A stretch of DNA of 64,000 bases from Paenimyroides ummariense. GTDB lineage: Bacteria; Bacteroidota; Bacteroidia; Flavobacteriales; Flavobacteriaceae. Location: NCBI GenBank assembly GCA_040391585.1, contig JBEBXO010000002.1, positions 26,051 through 90,050 on the forward strand, in the 5' to 3' direction. Numbering within the stretch: position 1 is the first letter of the stretch; every line of letters begins with the position of its first letter. Position numbers and translations under genes: made by a program. Shown in pieces: positions 10,046 through 58,221 of this stretch. Below the pieces are notes generated by a model, which worked only from the letters and a program-made list of their open reading frames with translations, was not told the origin of the DNA and did not search any database.

Positions 10046-10127
10046 GCGGGTATGGTGAAATTGGTAGACACGCCAGACTTAGGATCTGGTGCCGCAAGGT
10101 GTGAAGGTTCGAGTCCTTTTACCCGCA
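10046..10127 (+). tRNA. tRNA-Leu (anticodon TAG), type II with long variable arm
   Basis: Hand-folded. Acceptor GCGGGTA/TACCCGC. Anticodon stem CCAGA/TCTGG with loop CTTAGGA. 13-nt variable arm. T-arm GAAGG-TTCGAGT-CCTTT. Discriminator A, no encoded CCA. Confidence 0.9.
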
Positions 10128-10166: not shown

Positions 10167-10240
10167 TTTAATCTTTTTAATGTAATTACTTCTTACTATA
10201 CTAAAATAAAATTCTAAACGTTAATGTAAAAAATACTTAT

Positions 10241-11008
10241 ATGCGTTTATTTCTAGTGCTGTTTTGCTTTATAACTTTCAAAGGATTTTCACAGCTAAAA
10301 CAAAGTTTTTATTTTAATTATAACGAAAGCGAATTTACTGATACCGAAAAACAAAAAATCGATGATTGGATAAAGCTTCATCCAAACATGACTGTTTTAA
10401 AGGTTGAAGGTTTTTGTGATTGGGTAGGAACTAGTCAGTACAATAATGAACTTTCCGACAAAAGAATTCGTACTATTATAAACTATTTAAAAGGTAAAGT
10501 TGCAATTGATCAGGCAATTAATACAAAATCTTTTGGAAATGAATTCAAGCAAAACGAAATCCAAGATATAAATAGAAGGGTTGATATTTATTTTGCTAAT
10601 TTGGTAAAAGAAGATAGTGCATCAAAAAAGCTTGATGAAGAACTTTATTCTGCTAAAGCTGGGGAGAAAATAAATTTAAGAAACTTGAATTTTAATGGTG
10701 GGACTGCAATTTTTAAGTCTCATTCATATCCGGTTTTAAAAGAATTGGTACAAACAATGAGATCCAACCCTAATTTAAAGATTGAAATTCAGGGTCATAT
10801 TTGTTGCTATGCTGAATCAGATAGTAAAGATGTTTCAGCAAAAAGAGCTTTAGCAGTTTATAACTATCTTATTAAAAGCGGAATTGATAGAAAACGTTTA
10901 AAATATAAAAGTTTTGGCGGTTCGCAACCTATTTATGCAATTCCAGAACAAAACGAAGAACAACGGGAAGCTAATCGAAGAGTTGAAATTTTAATTTTAG
11001 AGAAATAA
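10241..11008 (+). CDS. OmpA family protein (two OmpA-like modules)
   Basis: Signal peptide. The C-terminal motif LKIEIQGHICC...SAKRALAVYNYLIKSGI...NRRVEILI is OmpA_C-like. An N-terminal weaker copy ends in NRRVDIYF. Confidence 0.7.
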   Translation: MRLFLVLFCFITFKGFSQLKQSFYFNYNESEFTDTEKQKIDDWIKLHPNMTVLKVEGFCDWVGTSQYNNELSDKRIRTIINYLKGKVAIDQAINTKSFGNEFKQNEIQDINRRVDIYFANLVKEDSASKKLDEELYSAKAGEKINLRNLNFNGGTAIFKSHSYPVLKELVQTMRSNPNLKIEIQGHICCYAESDSKDVSAKRALAVYNYLIKSGIDRKRLKYKSFGGSQPIYAIPEQNEEQREANRRVEILILEK

Positions 11009-11081: not shown

Positions 11082-11360
11082 ATGAAATTTACTTCAAACG
11101 AATACAATCTATTTAAAAGCATAATTGCTACAGTGCTACAACAAAATCATGCGCTTGCAGATAATGAAAGTAAAGTAAAATTACTATCGGATTTATATGA
11201 ACGGTTAAATCTTGAAAAAATAATAATGGGTGTATATCTACACGAACTAAATATGCAGATTAGAGTATATGTGAGTCAAAATGAACTTTCTGATGATGTA
11301 AAAATAAAATTAGAAAATCTGTTGGTGAAAATGAAACGAAAATCACACGCTACCCGATAA
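11082..11360 (+). CDS. hypothetical protein
   Basis: 92-aa ORF with no recognisable motif. Confidence 0.3.
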   Translation: MKFTSNEYNLFKSIIATVLQQNHALADNESKVKLLSDLYERLNLEKIIMGVYLHELNMQIRVYVSQNELSDDVKIKLENLLVKMKRKSHATR

Positions 11361-11390
11361 GTTTAGTAAACCGAAGTGATAGTAATGTAA

Positions 11391-11678
11391 ACCCGTAGTG
11401 CATTATCTTTTTATGCATAATGAATTGAAAAACGAATAGTTGTTTTTTTTTACCACATAGATTCTATATTTATTGTTGAACAAATTTTTAGGTTACATAG
11501 TTTTTGTATTTTACAAAATAAACATAGCTTAACTATGTGTTTTATCAATGATAAAAACTATGACCTCTTTTGTTGTCTATAATTTTCTAATAAATCAGTG
11601 AATAACTATGTTTTCTAATGTGGTTTAAAAAATATATAAATCTGTGCATCTGTGGATATTTTATAATACCCTACGGGT
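11391..11678 (+). mobile_element. MITE-like non-autonomous element, copy 1 (288 bp)
   Basis: TIRs ACCCGTAGTGCATTAT (11391-11406) and ATAATACCCTACGGGT (11663-11678), 14/16 complementary. 8-bp direct duplication TAATGTAA at 11383-11390 and 11679-11686. No ORF. CATAG x3 in the left half is mirrored by CTATG x3 in the right half. Confidence 0.8.
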
Positions 11679-11740
11679 TAATGTAAATATTTTTAAACAT
11701 TTCTCACAACTACAGTATATTTGCACAAAATTGCCGAAAA

Positions 11741-14700
11741 GTGAAAAGGAAGTATAAAAAAATTGCGTTATATGGTTTATTAACAATTATTGTTTTAATT
11801 GGACTAATTTTAGTTGCGCCACAATTATTTAAAAAACAAATTGAAACTGCTGTAAAAGAAGTTACCAAAGAGTTTATTATAACTCCGGTAAATTTCACCG
11901 ATTTAAATGTATCGTTTTTTAAAAACTTTCCGCAATTAAGTGTTTCGTTAAATAATTTAAGTGTCGATGCGCCTAAAGAATTTCATAATTTAAAAACAGT
12001 AGAAACCAATTCTGTTGATTTAGGAATCGATGTTTTTAGTCTTTTTTCTGATCAAATTACTTTTACGGAACTTTTTGTAAACGAAGGTAAATTCAATGTA
12101 ATTACCGATAGTTTGGGTCATTTTTCATTTGCAGTTTTTAAAACATCTACCGAACCTTCAAGCGATAGTTCGTTTCAACTTGCATTGAATAAAATCAATA
12201 TTAAAAATACTACTGTACTGTATCAAGACGATCAATCTAAAATTAAAATTAAAACAGATCGTACCAATATTGCCGGTGATGTGCAGGTTACCGATAAATT
12301 TATCAATTTTGAAACGAATGCCGATATAAAATCGTTGTTTTTTGAATTGGATAAAAATGTTTTGGTCGATCACAAACCATTGAAAGGAACCATTCATACA
12401 AAAGTAAATTTAGATCCAATTTCGATCGAGTTCAATAAAAACGAACTTTTGTTAGCAAATTTGCCTTTAAATGTTCAGGGAAAAGTAGCGGTTCTTGATA
12501 AAGGAATTGATTTTGATTTAAACGTAAAATCACAAAACGCATCGTTAGAAAATTTGTTTTCTTTGGTTCCAGAAACATATCAAAAATGGTACGAGGGAAT
12601 GTATTTTACCGGAAATTCAACTTTGCAGTTACTTTTAAAAGGTGTTATGCAAGACAGCGTTTCTAATCCCGATTTAAATATTCAATTAGGTATTACCAAC
12701 GGTAGCGTAGCCGCAAAGCAGTTTAAAGATATTCCTGTAAAAAATTTAACAACAAATGCCCAACTAAACTTACCTCAATTAAACCCAGATTCCTTACTTG
12801 TGAATGTTTCTAATTTTGCTTTTAATTTAGGCGATGGCTATGCAAAAGGTAATGCCCAATATAAATTTCCAATGTATGTTGATGCTCTTGTTGATGCTAA
12901 TTTAAATGTATCGCAACTATGGCAAACGCTTGCAATTTCGGGAATGGATCTTAAAGGTAATGCCACAATTAAAGGTGCTGTTAAAGGGAATTATTTAACT
13001 AAAACAACTAAAAACAAGCAAGGTGTAGAAGTTGCCGAAATTAAAGAAATTCCGACTTTTAATGTGAAAGCGAATTGGGAAAAAGGTTATTTTAAATGGA
13101 TAGAGATGCCCTTGGCAATTAACGATCTGAATTTTAATTTAGATGCTGTAAATACCGACGGAAATTATAAAAATACGCTTGTAGATATTCAAAATATCGA
13201 TGCAAAAGCAGGAGCTAATTATGTAAAAGGACGATTAAAGGTTACTAATTTAACCAATTTTAATACCGATACCGATTTAAAGGCGTATGTTGAATTAGCC
13301 GATGTGAAAAATATTTTTCCGATTAAAGAGGTCGATTTTGGCGGACAGTTAACTGTTGATACCAAAGCAAAAGGCAGTCTGGATTTAGATCGAAACAAAA
13401 TTCCTGTAACCTCTTCTATTGTAAAGCTTAAAAATGGTTTTCTGCGTTATAACAGTCTGCCAGAACTACCTTTAGAAAAAATAAATCTTGAAACGCACAT
13501 TACATCGCCTCGTGGTTCGTTAAACGATTTGCGTGTAAACGTACTGCCAATTTCGTTTGTGCTGGCTAACGAACCTTTTAAAATAGATGCTAATTTGTTT
13601 AATTTTAATAATTTAACTTTTGATATTGGTACTAAAGGAAAATTAAATCTGGGGAATCTTTACAAAGTTTTTGCTATTGCTGGTTTAGATGTTTCTGGAC
13701 AGTTAGAAACCGATTTAAAACTGAAAGGAAAAGGTGGGGCAGACGATCCGTCGTCGTTAAACAATCGTGGATTTGTATTGTTGAAAGATATTCATATTAA
13801 ATCGGAATTTTTTCCACACGATTTTGTTTTCACCGAAGGCAAGTTTAAATTCTATCGTAAAAAAATGCGTTTAGAAAACATAAAAATGAACTACGCAAAA
13901 CAAACATTTGTGTTAAATGGCGATTTAGAAAATTACATTAATTATTTCTTAACGCCCAATGCCACGTTGCAAGGAACTTTAAATGTAACATCGAAATTTA
14001 TAGATGTTAATTCGTTTATGTTTAGCGGTTCTACAGCAAATACAACAACTACCAATACTACTACGGCAGCAAGTAATGTAGTTTTAATTCCCGATTTAAT
14101 AAATTTTGAATTAACTGCAAATGCCCAAAAAGTGAAGTTTAACGATATGGTTTTAAACAATTTGTCGGGTATTTTAAAAGTGTACGATAAAAAACTGGAA
14201 CTGCACGAAGCAAAATTCGGATTAATTGATGCCGATTTTTTAATGAATGCCACTTACGAACCAGTAAGTAATAAACGAGCAAAATTTGGTTTTGATATTA
14301 ATGCACAACAGTTCGATATTCAAAAAGCCTACAAACAATTAACGTTGTTTAGAGAAATGGTTTCGGCAGCAGAAAATGCATCGGGGCAGGTATCATTAAA
14401 ATATCAGTTGCAAGGAATGTTAAATCAAGAAATGTATCCTATCATGCATTCTGTAAAAGGTTCGGGTGATTTAATTTTAGAGAACATACAATTTATGGGC
14501 TTTAAACTGTTTAATTCGGTTGCTAAAGAAACAAAAACCGATGCTTTACACGATGCCAATGTTCAAAATGTGGTGGTAAAAACATCTATCGAAAATAATG
14601 TCATGAATATAGAGCGTACCAAGTTTAAAATTGCAGGTTTCCGTCCGCGCGTGGAAGGGCAGGTTACATTAGACGGAAAAATGAATATTGGTATGCGTTT

Positions 14701-14869
14701 GGGCTTGCCACCTTTTGGAATTATCGGAATTCCTATAACCGTGAAAGGCGATAGTGATAATTTTGATATTAAAGTAGGGAAATACAAACAAGAAGATTTA
14801 TCTGAAGACGACGAAGATTACGAAGCTTATAAAAAATCTATTGATACCTTGCAGCCACAATTAAATTAA
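11741..14869 (+). CDS. AsmA-like / TamB-like large envelope protein
   Basis: 1042 aa. N-terminal TM anchor, then a long beta-rich, repeat-poor sequence typical of the AsmA family. GTG start. A TATATTTG box lies at 11716-11723. Confidence 0.65.
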   Translation: MKRKYKKIALYGLLTIIVLIGLILVAPQLFKKQIETAVKEVTKEFIITPVNFTDLNVSFFKNFPQLSVSLNNLSVDAPKEFHNLKTVETNSVDLGIDVFSLFSDQITFTELFVNEGKFNVITDSLGHFSFAVFKTSTEPSSDSSFQLALNKINIKNTTVLYQDDQSKIKIKTDRTNIAGDVQVTDKFINFETNADIKSLFFELDKNVLVDHKPLKGTIHTKVNLDPISIEFNKNELLLANLPLNVQGKVAVLDKGIDFDLNVKSQNASLENLFSLVPETYQKWYEGMYFTGNSTLQLLLKGVMQDSVSNPDLNIQLGITNGSVAAKQFKDIPVKNLTTNAQLNLPQLNPDSLLVNVSNFAFNLGDGYAKGNAQYKFPMYVDALVDANLNVSQLWQTLAISGMDLKGNATIKGAVKGNYLTKTTKNKQGVEVAEIKEIPTFNVKANWEKGYFKWIEMPLAINDLNFNLDAVNTDGNYKNTLVDIQNIDAKAGANYVKGRLKVTNLTNFNTDTDLKAYVELADVKNIFPIKEVDFGGQLTVDTKAKGSLDLDRNKIPVTSSIVKLKNGFLRYNSLPELPLEKINLETHITSPRGSLNDLRVNVLPISFVLANEPFKIDANLFNFNNLTFDIGTKGKLNLGNLYKVFAIAGLDVSGQLETDLKLKGKGGADDPSSLNNRGFVLLKDIHIKSEFFPHDFVFTEGKFKFYRKKMRLENIKMNYAKQTFVLNGDLENYINYFLTPNATLQGTLNVTSKFIDVNSFMFSGSTANTTTTNTTTAASNVVLIPDLINFELTANAQKVKFNDMVLNNLSGILKVYDKKLELHEAKFGLIDADFLMNATYEPVSNKRAKFGFDINAQQFDIQKAYKQLTLFREMVSAAENASGQVSLKYQLQGMLNQEMYPIMHSVKGSGDLILENIQFMGFKLFNSVAKETKTDALHDANVQNVVVKTSIENNVMNIERTKFKIAGFRPRVEGQVTLDGKMNIGMRLGLPPFGIIGIPITVKGDSDNFDIKVGKYKQEDLSEDDEDYEAYKKSIDTLQPQLN

Positions 14870-32898: not shown

Positions 32899-34335
32899 TT
32901 AAAATTCTGCGTTTTGTGGTGTTCTTGGGAACGGGATTACGTCGCGAATGTTGGTCATGCCGGTTACGAATAGCACCAAACGTTCAAAACCTAAGCCAAA
33001 CCCAGAGTGTACTGCGGTACCAAATTTACGTGTATCTAAATACCACCATAATTCTTCTTCAGGAATGTTTAGAGCTTTCATTTTTTCGACTAAAACTTCG
33101 TAACGTTCTTCACGTTGAGATCCGCCGACAATTTCTCCAATGCCTGGAAATAAAATATCCATTGCACGCACTGTTTTTTCATCCTCGTTTAAACGCATAT
33201 AGAATGATTTAATGTTTGCGGGATAATCAAAAACAATTACCGGAGATTTAAAGTGTTTTTCAACCAAGAAACGTTCGTGTTCACTTTGTAAATCGGCTCC
33301 CCATTCTTCAATTAGGTAGTTGAATTGTTTCTTTTTATTTGGTTTAGAATCTTTTAAAATATCAATAGCTTCGGTGTACGAAACACGTTTGAAATTGTTT
33401 TCTAAAACAAAACGTAATTTTTCAATTAAGCTCATTTCAGAACGTTCTGCCTGTGGTTTCGATTTTTCTTCATCTAACAAACGTGTTTCCAATTGTTTTA
33501 AATCGTCTTCACATTTTTCTAACGTATATTTAATGACGTATTTAATGAAATCTTCAGCCAAATCCATATTGCCGTCTAAATCTAAAAAAGCAACCTCTGG
33601 TTCAATCATCCAAAATTCTGCTAAGTGACGTGAAGTGTTTGAATTTTCGGCACGAAATGTTGGTCCAAAAGTATAAATTGATCCCAATGCCATAGCATAC
33701 GCTTCGCCTTCTAACTGACCCGAAACGGTTAAATTAGTATGTTTACCAAAAAAATCTTCTTTGTAATTAATACTTCCGTCTTCGTTGCGAGGTGCAGAAC
33801 CATCTAACGGAAAGGAAGTTACTTGAAACATTTCGCCAGCTCCTTCAGCATCAGATCCAGTAATAATTGGCGTGTTTACATAGAAAAAACCATTGTCTTG
33901 AAAGTACTTGTGTACCGCGTAAGCTAACGTGCTGCGCACACGCATAATAGCACCAAACATATTGGTACGAATGCGTAAATGAGCATTTTCACGTAAAAAC
34001 TCTAACGAGTGTTTTTTAGGCTGCATTGGGTATTTTTCAGGATCAGAATCTCCTAAAATTTCTAAAGCAGTTGCCTGAATTTCATATTTCTGTCCTTTTC
34101 CTTGGCTTTCAACCAACGTACCTTTTACGCTAACAGCAGCACCCGTTGTAATACGTTTTACAATTTCTTCAGGAAAAGCATCTAATTCTAAAACGCACTG
34201 AATGTTGTGTATGGTAGAACCGTCGTTTAACGCAATAAACTGATTGTTTCTAAAAGTACGAACCCAACCTTTAGCCGTTACTTCTTGTAATAGATGCGAT
34301 CCAGCTAAAAGATCTTTAATCTTGATATGTTTCAT
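32899..34335 (-). CDS. asnS: asparagine--tRNA ligase
   Basis: Class IIb aaRS motifs ([34 protein letters not shown]) in a 478-aa protein. Confidence 0.9.
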
Positions 34336-34429
34336 TATATGTGCTATAATAATATGTCGAATAATATAATTTGCAAAGTTATGATTTTTTGAGATTTAAA
34401 CAGCATAATTTTAACGAAAGTAAACTATA

Positions 34430-34711
34430 ACCCGTAGTGCATTATAAAATATCCTCGGATACACAGATTTATATGTTTTTTAAACCACAATAGAAAATAT
34501 AGTTATATACTGATTTATTAGTAAGTTATAGAGAACCAAAGGGTATATATAGTTTTTATCAATGATAAAACACATAGTCAAGCTATGTTTATTTTGTAAA
34601 ATACAAAAACTATGTAGCCTAAAATTTTTTCAACAGTAAATACAGAATCTATGTGGTGAAAAACGATTTGTTTTTAGTTTATTACATGTAAAAGGATAAT
34701 CCACTACAGGT
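34430..34711 (-). mobile_element. MITE-like non-autonomous element, copy 2 (282 bp, inverted relative to copy 1)
   Basis: TIRs ACCCGTAGTGCATTAT (34430-34445) and ATAATCCACTACAGGT (34696-34711). 8-bp duplication AAACTATA at 34422-34429 and 34712-34719. The sequence is the reverse complement of copy 1 with high identity along the full length. Confidence 0.8.
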
Positions 34712-34757
34712 AAACTATAGCGTTTTTTTATATCTTTGATGTTAAAAGTGAATAAAA

Positions 34758-35087
34758 ATGAATTGGATTTTATTGATTATTGGCGGCTTGTTTGAAGTTG
34801 CTTTTACTTATTGCATTGGACGAGCGAACGAGGCTACTGGAAACGAAAAATATTTGTGGTATGTAGGGTTTTTAATCAGCGTTTCTATAAGTATGGGCTT
34901 GTTGATAAAAGCTAGTAAAACACTGACTTTAGGTACGGCGTATGCCGTTTGGAGTGGGATAGGAGCTGTAGGGTCGGTAACAATGGGTATTTTATTCTTT
35001 AAAGAACCAGCTGATTTTTGGCGTATGTTTTTTATATTTACGTTAATTGGCTCTATTGTAGGTTTAAAAATGGTTTCGGCGAGTTAA
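34758..35087 (+). CDS. sugE: SMR family transporter (SugE/Gdx-like)
   Basis: 109 aa with 4 TM segments and the conserved Glu in TM1 (GGLFEVAF). A TATCTTTG -7-like box lies at 34731-34738. Confidence 0.8.
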   Translation: MNWILLIIGGLFEVAFTYCIGRANEATGNEKYLWYVGFLISVSISMGLLIKASKTLTLGTAYAVWSGIGAVGSVTMGILFFKEPADFWRMFFIFTLIGSIVGLKMVSAS

Positions 35088-56103: not shown

Positions 56104-58221
56104 TTATTTAAACATTTTTCCGATGATTTGTCCAATTTCAGTATAATCACTAAAGTTGTTAATAGATCTTTTTTCCAATACATCTTCATCTTTTTCTGTA
56201 AAAGGATAAATAATCAGGTAATTAATGTCAGAAAACTGTTTGTTCAATGTATCCGGTAAGATATTTGTGAAACGCGAACGCCCAACTTCTCTGCGATCCA
56301 TCAACATAATTAAACCTTCGTTGTATTCAATATCTTTTGAAACACGTTCAATTTCTTTCCAACTATTTATTGTTTCAATTGTTGCTTCGATGTTTGCTTT
56401 TTGTAGAATTTTTTCCAACACTTTAACTGTTGATGCAAAAGCGTAAAACTCCATTACAGCACCACTGTTTCGGGCAATGTTCCAAACGCGTAACAAGGCA
56501 TAAAAGAAACCGGCTTGGGTTTCGGCATTGCGTGGAATAAATACCAAATGTCTTTTAATGGTAGATATAGGCTGTACTGCGTGGTATATTAGCAGGTTAC
56601 TTTGGGTATTGTGAACGTAACCGTTAAAAATGTTGTAGATAAGCGAGGGAGTAAACCCTTTTTCTGAATCAACCCCAATGATGAGGTCGGTAATGCGTTG
56701 CTCTTTAATTACATTTTTGATACCGTTTACTAAATCGCTGTCGTAACGTGTTATAGGCGTAAGTTTTACATCCATAGAGGCGGCGTTATTTACAGCAGCA
56801 TCAAGAAGTTTTTCGGCATTTTTAACTGATGATTCATTTTTTTCTTCGTTGATGATATTCAGTCCAAAGACGCCATCGGTATTCTGTTTACTTTTGATTA
56901 GCATGGAAAGGTTTACCATTTTTTCTACCATTTCCATATCATTCAAAGCCAGTAAGATGTTTTCTTCTTCGTGCGTGTCGCCGGAAACAGTATCTTCACT
57001 TTCAGCTTCGGCTATTTTCTTCGCATTTGCCATAGTTACAAACGATGAAATAGTACACGAAACCAAAATCAGCAAAATACTACCGTATAGCACGTGCTCA
57101 TTTAACAATCGGATTGGTTCTCCCAATTCATTTTCAGACAATACCACGTTGTATCCTACCATTACCGTTGCTAAAGTTGCAGCAGCAGAGGCAGAACTAA
57201 GTCCAAAAATAATTCCGCCTTCGGGTTTTGTAAACTTAAAGGTTTTTTGAGTAGCCATAGCAGCCAAGTATTTTCCACCGATCGAACAAGCGATCATTAC
57301 AAGTGCCACGATGATGGTATCCCAACTTTTAAAGAAGACAGAAAAATCGATAATCATTCCTACACTAATCAAGAAAAACGGAATGAATATAGCGTTACCT
57401 ACAAATTCGATTCGGTTCATTAACGAGGAGGTGTGCGGAATTAATCTGTTTAACGCTAATCCGGCAAGGAAGGCGCCAATAATAGCTTCAACCCCTGCTA
57501 ATTCAGCAAAGAGCGATGCCAAATAAATCATGACTAAAACAAAGATATACTGCGAAATTTTATCGTCGACCTTTTTAAAGAACCAACGCCCAATGATTGG
57601 GAAAATAAGCAAAACAACCAATCCAAAAACAACGACTGACACTCCTAATTTCAACCAAAATTCTTGTCCTACTTCACCCTGCGACATGCCCACTACCGCA
57701 GCTAAAACCAATAAAGCCAAAATATCGGTAATCATGGTTCCGCCTACTGTAACGTTGACCGATCTGTTTTTGGTGATACCGAATTTGCTCAATAACGGGT
57801 AAGCAATTAGCGTATGTGATGAAAACAAACTGGCAAATAATAACGAAGTTAATACATTGTAATTTAAAAGAAAATGCGCACAGACGTATCCCAAGATAAA
57901 TGGAAACAAGAAAGTGTATAAACCAAAGCCTAGACTTTTCCATTTGTTCTTTTTAAAATCGCCCATATCAATTTCTAAACCAGCCAAAAACATAATGTAC
58001 AGTAAACCGGTAGTGCCTGTAACTACTATATTGCTATCGCGCGCCAACACATTAAAACCATGCGGACCTATAACTGCACCTGCAATAATTAAACCTATTA
58101 AATGAGGTACTTTAATTTTGTTTAGCAACAGCGGTGCTGCCAAAATGATAATTAATAATATAAGGAATTTCAGTACCGGATCTTCAATCGGTAAACTGGT
58201 ATTTAAACTAAGTAACAACAT
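56104..58221 (-). CDS. cation:proton antiporter (CPA2) with C-terminal USP-like cytoplasmic domain
   Basis: About 12 TM Na_H_Exchanger region (GLIIAGAVIGP..., FLAGLEID) plus a ~280-aa soluble C-terminus. Paralog of 61519..63777. Confidence 0.75.
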   Translation of the reverse strand: MLLLSLNTSLPIEDPVLKFLILLIIILAAPLLLNKIKVPHLIGLIIAGAVIGPHGFNVLARDSNIVVTGTTGLLYIMFLAGLEIDMGDFKKNKWKSLGFGLYTFLFPFILGYVCAHFLLNYNVLTSLLFASLFSSHTLIAYPLLSKFGITKNRSVNVTVGGTMITDILALLVLAAVVGMSQGEVGQEFWLKLGVSVVVFGLVVLLIFPIIGRWFFKKVDDKISQYIFVLVMIYLASLFAELAGVEAIIGAFLAGLALNRLIPHTSSLMNRIEFVGNAIFIPFFLISVGMIIDFSVFFKSWDTIIVALVMIACSIGGKYLAAMATQKTFKFTKPEGGIIFGLSSASAAATLATVMVGYNVVLSENELGEPIRLLNEHVLYGSILLILVSCTISSFVTMANAKKIAEAESEDTVSGDTHEEENILLALNDMEMVEKMVNLSMLIKSKQNTDGVFGLNIINEEKNESSVKNAEKLLDAAVNNAASMDVKLTPITRYDSDLVNGIKNVIKEQRITDLIIGVDSEKGFTPSLIYNIFNGYVHNTQSNLLIYHAVQPISTIKRHLVFIPRNAETQAGFFYALLRVWNIARNSGAVMEFYAFASTVKVLEKILQKANIEATIETINSWKEIERVSKDIEYNEGLIMLMDRREVGRSRFTNILPDTLNKQFSDINYLIIYPFTEKDEDVLEKRSINNFSDYTEIGQIIGKMFK

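Follow-up and report, generated by a model that had tools for sequence, protein, structure and literature searches.

A 288-bp insertion in Paenimyroides ummariense, very probably a MITE of the IS982 family

We report that a 288-bp element in a 64-kb stretch of Paenimyroides ummariense DNA (64,000 nucleotides, here called the window) very probably belongs to the IS982 family, within the ISRa1-like group, as a non-autonomous DNA transposon (MITE). The element, referred to as copy 1 (positions 11391..11678, + strand), is short and has no transposase gene. It is bounded by terminal inverted repeats (TIRs) and flanked by a target site duplication (TSD), which in the family has a fixed length and a varying sequence; for copy 1 an empty site is present in related genomes, copies of the element are dispersed over several loci and genera, and an autonomous element with the same terminus exists.

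Copy 1, its ends and its empty site

Copy 1 starts with ACCCGTAGTGCATTAT (left TIR, 11391..11406, + strand), which is identical to the terminus of IS elements of the IS982/ISRa1 group, and ends with ATAATACCCTACGGGT. The right TIR (11663..11678, - strand), ACCCGTAGGGTATTAT when read as the reverse complement, is complementary to the left TIR at 14 of 16 positions. The TSD is perfect, with the 8-bp sequence TAATGTAA directly abutting both ends (11383..11390 and 11679..11686). The longest internal ORF is 32 aa and no transposase similarity was detected inside copy 1. The original prediction, which was made from the sequence, had described a 288-bp ORF-less element with 14/16 TIRs and a perfect 8-bp TSD, and all these features could be located as described.

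By itself, the 8-mer TAATGTAA is no rarity: it occurs 10 times in the window, where 8.4 occurrences are expected. An 8-bp direct repeat abutting TIRs that match at 14/16 positions or better was found twice in the window, at copy 1 and at a second copy (copy 2, see below), and not once in 20 shuffled windows. We note that TAATGTAA is also present at 10178 and 10222, near a tRNA gene (10046-10127; Rfam RF00005, 60.4 bits) just upstream of an OmpA-family gene, and that these occurrences are unrelated to the MITE. The OmpA-family gene (10241-11008) has its best matches in Myroides/Paenimyroides, with 78-83% protein identity.

Comparison with the relatives L004, L005 and L007 showed that both genes flanking copy 1 align, while the element together with one TSD copy (about 296-304 bp) is missing. 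At this empty site the 8-mer is single in the three relatives and reads CACTGTAA, CACTTTAA or CACTATAA; where the window has ATAG-TAATGTAA-element-TAATGTAA-ATATTTTTAAACA, a relative has, e.g., ATAG-CACTGTAA-ATTTTCTTAAACA. Given the empty site with a single 8-mer in L004, L005 and L007, copy 1 is an insertion that duplicated its target, i.e. mobile DNA. In the original prediction a site filled also in relatives was named as an observation that would speak against insertion; the relatives are empty and carry one target 8-mer, which favours a MITE. In a Logan contig of the same species (L003) the site is filled, with 100% identity.

Further copies and spread of the family

BLAST within the window identified copy 2 (34430..34711, - strand, 282 bp), which is inverted relative to copy 1 and 84.5% identical to it. 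It is flanked by the 8-bp TSD AAACTATA (34422..34429 and 34712..34719), and its TIRs match at 14/16 positions as in copy 1; the TIRs are kept also in the copies from other genomes. One of these, L001, is an internally deleted copy in a Flavobacterium MAG (TSD AATAAGTT), and another, L002, is present in a Myroides MAG and is 86% identical (TSD TATTACAT). The metagenome contigs L202-L206 represent two further loci in three metagenomes, with the TSD ATAAATGA at L205. Hence, copies expected of a mobile family were found in the window, in a Flavobacterium MAG, in a Myroides MAG and in metagenomes, and each of five independent insertions has a perfect AT-rich 8-bp TSD of its own, different from the others. 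The empty orthologous site, the second copy in the window and the copies elsewhere with different 8-bp TSDs bear out the proposed MITE, with its TIRs of 16 bp and its TSD of 8 bp.

The window has two full copies and one relic (see below) in 64 kb. Three scans of sequence collections gave only 7 further copies, and the family looks low-copy. Scanning genome contigs with a 25-mer from the right end and with a 22-mer from the core gave one locus each, and we therefore concluded that the family is rare or diverged among species representatives. No match was obtained when viral contigs were scanned with the core pattern, or when the element was subjected to BLAST against plasmid and phage collections. 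The divergence between copies 1 and 2 (approximately 15%) together with their imperfect TIRs suggests that the copies in the window are old insertions.

Genes around the two copies

Copy 1 is inserted between two genes that are conserved in Myroides/Paenimyroides, and both are left intact. These are a 92-aa ORF (11082-11360) and a 1042-aa ORF (11741-14869), for which no Pfam match was detected at E up to 0.001. Copy 1 starts 31 bp past the stop of the 92-aa ORF. On its other side, about 30-37 bp downstream of the element and upstream of the 1042-aa ORF, there is a TAnnTTTG box, TATATTTG (11716-11723), which is conserved in all relatives. The core promoter of the 1042-aa ORF is accordingly placed outside the element and is probably intact, with the sequence further upstream displaced by 296 bp.

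Copy 2 is located in the intergenic region between the divergent asnS (32899-34335, - strand) and an SMR-family gene (34758-35087, + strand); exact-protein look-ups of these two genes gave no match. A TATCTTTG box (34729-34736) follows 18 bp past its end, so the terminus of copy 2 would occupy the position of the upstream element of the SMR-side promoter. A scan for sigma-70-type promoters and terminators gave no excess over shuffled sequences, with a model that is not applicable to Bacteroidota promoters. IS982-family members have been documented to supply outward or hybrid promoters (PMC9330008). Since the copies lie directly upstream of genes and IS982 members alter the expression of their neighbours, both insertions in the window may be regarded as candidates for strain-specific regulatory differences.

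IS982 elements sharing the terminus

According to the original prediction the TIR could not be assigned to a known IS family. It is assignable: judged by sequence identity, the TIR is the terminus found on ISRa1-like elements of the IS982 family. The exact 16-mer ACCCGTAGTGCATTAT was scanned in genome contigs, using one genome per species, and was found in at least 118 stretches, nearly all from Bacteroidota. Among the matches listed the genera are Flavobacterium, Epilithonimonas, Chryseobacterium, Pedobacter, Cloacibacterium, Kaistella, Cruoricaptor, Paenimyroides, Myroides and Aquimarina, and many of the matches listed are positioned a few hundred bases from contig ends and point outwards, as expected of a multicopy repeat. 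At no less than seven loci (a lower bound) two inverted termini are 969-976 bp apart and enclose one ORF each, and perfect 8-bp TSDs were identified at three full-length elements (L099, L102 and L171, with TCATTTAC, TATGAAAT and ATTACTAT). The 291-293-aa product matches the NCBIfam model NF033520, "IS982 family transposase", with 238-248 bits (cut-off 130 bits), and also Pfam DDE_Tnp_1 and DDE_Tnp_1_3. Thus, the longer transposase-encoding element with the same termini, which the original prediction suggested looking for, was found in the form of these ~975-bp IS982 elements. Among the matches listed, an IS982 transposase coding sequence is present behind 39 of 123 termini, and no other transposase type was seen behind any of the 123; most of the remaining termini are too near a contig end to judge, and there the same subterminal IS sequence was seen.

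The identical 16-mer is present in an element annotated as "IS982 family transposase" on the Empedobacter stercoris plasmid pLPY03, while the terminus of ISRa1 of Riemerella, ACCCGTTGTGCATTAT, differs from ACCCGTAGTGCATTAT by one base. The Myroides MAG MB2.029, which is a binned assembly, contains the MITE copy L002 together with the left end of an IS982 element (L100) that has the same terminus. IS982 elements are characterised by one DDE transposase of ~270-300 aa in ~1 kb and by TIRs of ~18-20 bp that start with AC/ACCC, and the MITE TIR begins with ACCCG. The Lactococcus member ISLll1 (999 bp, 296-aa protein) likewise starts with ACCCG and has the terminus ACCCGAATTGC (PMC13339394), and the size of the partner elements (291-293 aa, 969-976 bp) agrees with that of ISLll1 and of ISCaa5, another IS982 member (932 bp, 274-aa protein; PMC3196728).

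The MITE and IS982 termini are identical over 16 of 16 positions, and over 20 of 20 for copy 2 and L001. Beyond the first 16-20 bp (30 bp with L099) the MITE no longer resembles the sampled IS982 elements, and since the interior is unrelated to them the MITE would be a simple internal-deletion derivative of none of the sampled IS elements. No IS982 transposase was detected in the 64-kb window by tblastn, in agreement with the earlier statement that the window has no transposase with matching ends, and mobilisation would consequently have to be in trans. We propose that the MITE carries 16-20-bp termini that would be recognised by an IS982 DDE transposase, in an element without a transposase gene, and that it would be moved, and could still be moved, by an IS982 element at some other genomic site or on a plasmid entering the cell. 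Staggered cuts of 8 bp in AT-rich DNA followed by gap repair would then generate the 8-bp duplication, and copy 1 would have inserted after the lineage had split from the sequenced Myroides/Paenimyroides relatives.

Among the matches listed we also noted the ACCCGTAGTGCATTAT termini in a further ten short elements of 183-465 bp from Pedobacter, Chryseobacterium and other Bacteroidota (L087, L114, L121, L129, L152, L169, L174, L189, L195 and L197), the interiors of which are unrelated. Their TSDs are mostly 7 bp (L087, L169, L174 and L195), and 8 bp at L189. It appears that the ISRa1-group terminus serves several MITE lineages. The loci L120 and L165 have the subterminal motif CCACAGATGCACAGAT in common with the MITE family of the window. 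The IS982 element of pLPY03 (L223, NZ_CP104212.1 8493-9766) ends ~130 bp upstream of the extended-spectrum beta-lactamase gene blaRAA-1, a placement that resembles known IS982-driven expression of resistance genes. Finally, the flavobacterial IS982 terminus is present on contigs of a MAG labelled Variovorax paradoxus (CALRRY02; L056, L085, L091, L092, L096 and L133) and of a MAG labelled Burkholderiales (CAZOZL01; L112, L127 and L142). A Flavobacterium-like OmpA-family gene is present on the same contig as L056, and the bins labelled Variovorax and Burkholderiales are probably mislabelled or contaminated.

Internal palindromes, the conserved core and alternative explanations

The original prediction also included dyad symmetry throughout the element, with the possibility of a long hairpin. 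Three CATAG motifs (starting at 11456, 11496 and 11523) are indeed mirrored by three CTATG motifs (starting at 11533, 11558 and 11606), an arrangement of three to the left and three to the right that was obtained in 0 of 20,000 shuffles; the window-wide expectation is ~0.3 such pentamers per 288 bp. The subterminal mirror pair is likewise present, with TTTTTTTTACCACAT (11444-11458) and ATGTGGTTTAAAAAA (11618-11632) mirroring each other at 87%. In total, copy 1 has four nested arm pairs and three small core hairpins. Comparing the element with its own reverse complement gave arms of only 15-23 nt, and the symmetry therefore holds as nested arm pairs and core hairpins but not as one global mirror image. 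The CATAG/CTATG motifs constitute stems of the core and arm palindromes. The suggestion that they are transposase-binding sites is unsupported, as the IS982 ends with the same TIR lack these motifs.

An alignment of nine copies retains the arms TTTTT-ACCACAT/ATGTGGT-AAAAA and TAGG..ACATAGT/ACTATGT..CTA as well as three adjacent core hairpins, and copy 1 folds better than shuffled sequences (z = -3.9 as DNA and -3.8 as RNA). The palindromic architecture that the hairpin proposal relied on is thus conserved; selection for the fold itself was not apparent as covariation. RNAalifold gave a covariation term of +0.4 with compensatory change in just 2 of 56 pairs, and because the paired columns are almost invariant, structure is inseparable from sequence conservation.

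The most conserved part is a 68-bp core (11489..11556, + strand; ~34553-34620 in copy 2), in which three small palindromes, TTTTGTA-TTT-TACAAAA, CATAG-CTTAA-CTATG and TTTTATC-AAT-GATAAAA, are located inside an ACATAGTTTTT/AAAAACTATG stem. Over six independent insertions the mean pairwise identity of the core is 92%, compared with 73-83% for the TIRs and subterminal DNA (78-83% for the TIRs alone), and an excess of this kind was obtained in 0 of 20,000 permutations. Several copies were found by means of core patterns, which partly inflates the core identity by ascertainment; the excess holds, however, also for copy 1 versus copy 2, with 3 differences in 68 positions against ~15% overall, and for L001, which was found through its end. 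A core that is more conserved than the ends is the reverse of the neutral expectation, and the way in which copies were identified accounts for just a part of it.

These data raise the possibility that the element is a MITE by origin and that its three-palindrome core is selected cargo that might, for example, bind protein, encode a small RNA or act as a promoter/insulator. The copies would then persist through effects on neighbouring genes, and this would be compatible with an IS982-type MITE. In addition to the excess conservation of the core, it fits with such a role that both copies in the window are just upstream of genes and near TAnnTTTG boxes, and that IS982 members can provide promoters as discussed above. 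We nevertheless consider selected cargo unlikely, given the effect of the core-based search patterns on core identity and the lack of both covariation and an Rfam match; uneven decay could, moreover, reflect structural needs of mobilisation.

It is considerably less probable that the MITE is moved by another family that generates 8-bp TSDs (e.g. IS1595, ISL3, IS66, IS6 or IS256) and that its resemblance to IS982 is coincidental. TSDs of 8 bp are made by other families as well, no IS982 element lies in the window and the core of the MITE is unrelated to IS982, but the termini match those of many IS982 elements that make 8-bp TSDs over their full 16 bp (20 bp for copy 2 and L001), and only IS982 transposases were identified behind the 123 termini among the matches listed. 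The suggestion that the element is a conserved locus with a regulatory role or for a non-coding RNA, native to the intergenic region and never inserted, would be in keeping with the fold (z about -3.9) and with a core highly conserved between copies, but is scarcely credible given that the site is empty in three relatives with conserved flanking genes, that copies occupy unrelated loci with different TSDs, that the predicted pairs are without covariation, and that neither at the gathering score nor at E up to 1 does the element match Rfam, so that both a curated family match and covariation, by which a structured RNA is recognised, are lacking. An IS982-type MITE therefore remains our preferred explanation.

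Relation to known systems

The element is of a known kind, as IS982-derived MITEs, presumed to be moved by a known IS family, have already been published for Bacteroidota: MITECca01 and MITECca02 of Cardinium derive from ISCca4, which belongs to the IS982 family (PMC9769881). The original prediction considered the family to be uncharacterised; this stands insofar as we found no paper on this particular MITE family in the literature, but not for the kind of element. The MITECca elements (~240 bp) and the family in the window have in common a Bacteroidota host, absence of a transposase, TIRs of the parental IS982 type, a mostly intergenic location and presumed mobilisation in trans. They differ in sequence and in distribution, since MITECca01 is present in 169 copies in one genome and in one lineage only (PMC9769881), whereas the window family is low-copy and is present at least in Myroides, Flavobacterium and the organism of the window. 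Furthermore, the MITECca elements retain subterminal ISCca4 sequence, while no similarity to the sampled parental IS elements could be detected in the core of the window family.

With ISRa1 and the IS982 element of pLPY03 the MITE has in common the terminal sequence and the AT-rich 8-bp TSDs of their full-length relatives. The ISRa1-type elements are autonomous (~975 bp, with a 291-293-aa DDE transposase), whereas the MITE is 288 bp and non-coding and has only the terminal 16-20 bp in common with them. The Correia elements of Neisseria, the pneumococcal RUP and BOX elements and the enterobacterial ERIC-type elements are also short, TIR-bounded and intergenic, form long imperfect hairpins and are often near promoters; their parental IS families and TSDs differ from those of the window MITE, and Correia elements duplicate TA.

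In automated surveys the number of MITEs listed is in the thousands for Flavobacterium and exceeds 81,000 for Bacteroidota (PMC11602168), and such catalogues hold thousands of elements of this type with the parent unnamed. The main value of the present analysis is for annotation: a repeat is assigned to the IS982/ISRa1 group, its ends, TSD and consensus are defined, and one 16-bp terminus is seen to bound IS982 elements as well as several unrelated short elements across Bacteroidota. The understanding of MITE, IS982 and IS110 systems is unchanged by the findings.

A relic of the family and its IS110 insertion

A third member of the family in the window is interrupted by an IS110-family element. 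Its left remnant (54590..54614, + strand) has lost the left TIR and ends with ...TTTTTTACCACAG at the IS110 junction, and its right part (55981..56103, + strand) has ATCTGTGAATCTGTGG at 56065-56080 and, as a degenerate right TIR, ATAATGCTCTAAGGGC, which ends at the stop codon of a Na+/H+ exchanger gene (56104-58221, - strand). BLAST within the window identified a 40-bp terminal MITE fragment here (56063-56102). As the left TIR is lost, the relic is a degenerate relative and not a third intact copy. A reading of 54590-54620 as MITE positions 40-77 split by the IS110 element was rejected, since part of the similarity, ACAGAATCT, belongs to the right end of the IS110 element.

The IS110 element (54615..55980, - strand, 1366 bp) has as its insertion site the CT core of the motif ATCTGTGTAT-CT-GTGG in the relic, and encodes a transposase (54676-55728, - strand) with Pfam PF01548 and PF02371. 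Its boundaries were set by relatives with 73-78% DNA identity at independent loci, and they are confirmed by L213, where just upstream the target of the L213 element is present in uninterrupted form. The ends, CCTATGTTTGCAAAG... and ...TTAACACAGAAT, are conserved in the relatives and have a CT core on each side and no TIRs. An exact-protein look-up of the TTG-start IS110 ORF gave no match, and the ATG-start protein was matched in three related samples, at this one locus and nowhere else.

Excising the IS110 element in silico restores ATCTGTGTAT-CT-GTGG, which is an exact instance of the subterminal family motif ATCTGTGNATCTGTGG. This motif is also present in copy 1 (ATCTGTGCATCTGTGG, 11640..11655, + strand) and at the right end of the relic (56065-56080). 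Within the non-coding left end of the IS110 element, CCACAGATA is the reverse complement of the target TATCTGTGG (core and right flank), and the equivalent segment in L210, L211 and L213 shifts in step with their targets; a second left-end segment tracks the left flank and core. Because these left-end segments match the target flanks and covary with them across four lineages, the left end looks like a predicted bridge-RNA guide specific for the MITE motif. Such a pattern is that described for the target-binding loop in bridge RNAs of IS110 elements (PMC11208160, PMC11208158). By its DEDD/IS110 transposase, the absence of TIRs, the dinucleotide core on both sides and these putative guide segments matching the flanks, the element would be classified as IS110.

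The IS110 elements IS621 and ISPpu10 target repeated intergenic sequences by means of a bridge RNA (PMC11208160, PMC11208158, bioRxiv 10.64898/2026.03.19.712850). The IS110 element of the window resembles them in the CT core on both sides, the absence of TIRs and the left-end segments that covary with the target; it differs in that it targets the subterminal motif of an IS982-type MITE and not a REP element, and its bridge RNA is inferred from the sequence. An IS110 element within the family motif and with a matching predicted guide may be a clear-cut case from nature in which a repeat carried by a MITE is targeted through a bridge RNA. A more far-reaching idea is that the core is functional cargo spread by the IS982 transposase and that ATCTGTGNATCTGTGG in addition is a landing pad for a bridge-RNA-guided IS110; we regard this as rather doubtful. 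If true, one MITE family would link two unrelated transposition systems and would seed new IS110 targets genome-wide. As to candidate targets (ATCTGTGYATCTGTGG), the site in copy 1 at 11640-11655 is a near-identical potential IS110 target.
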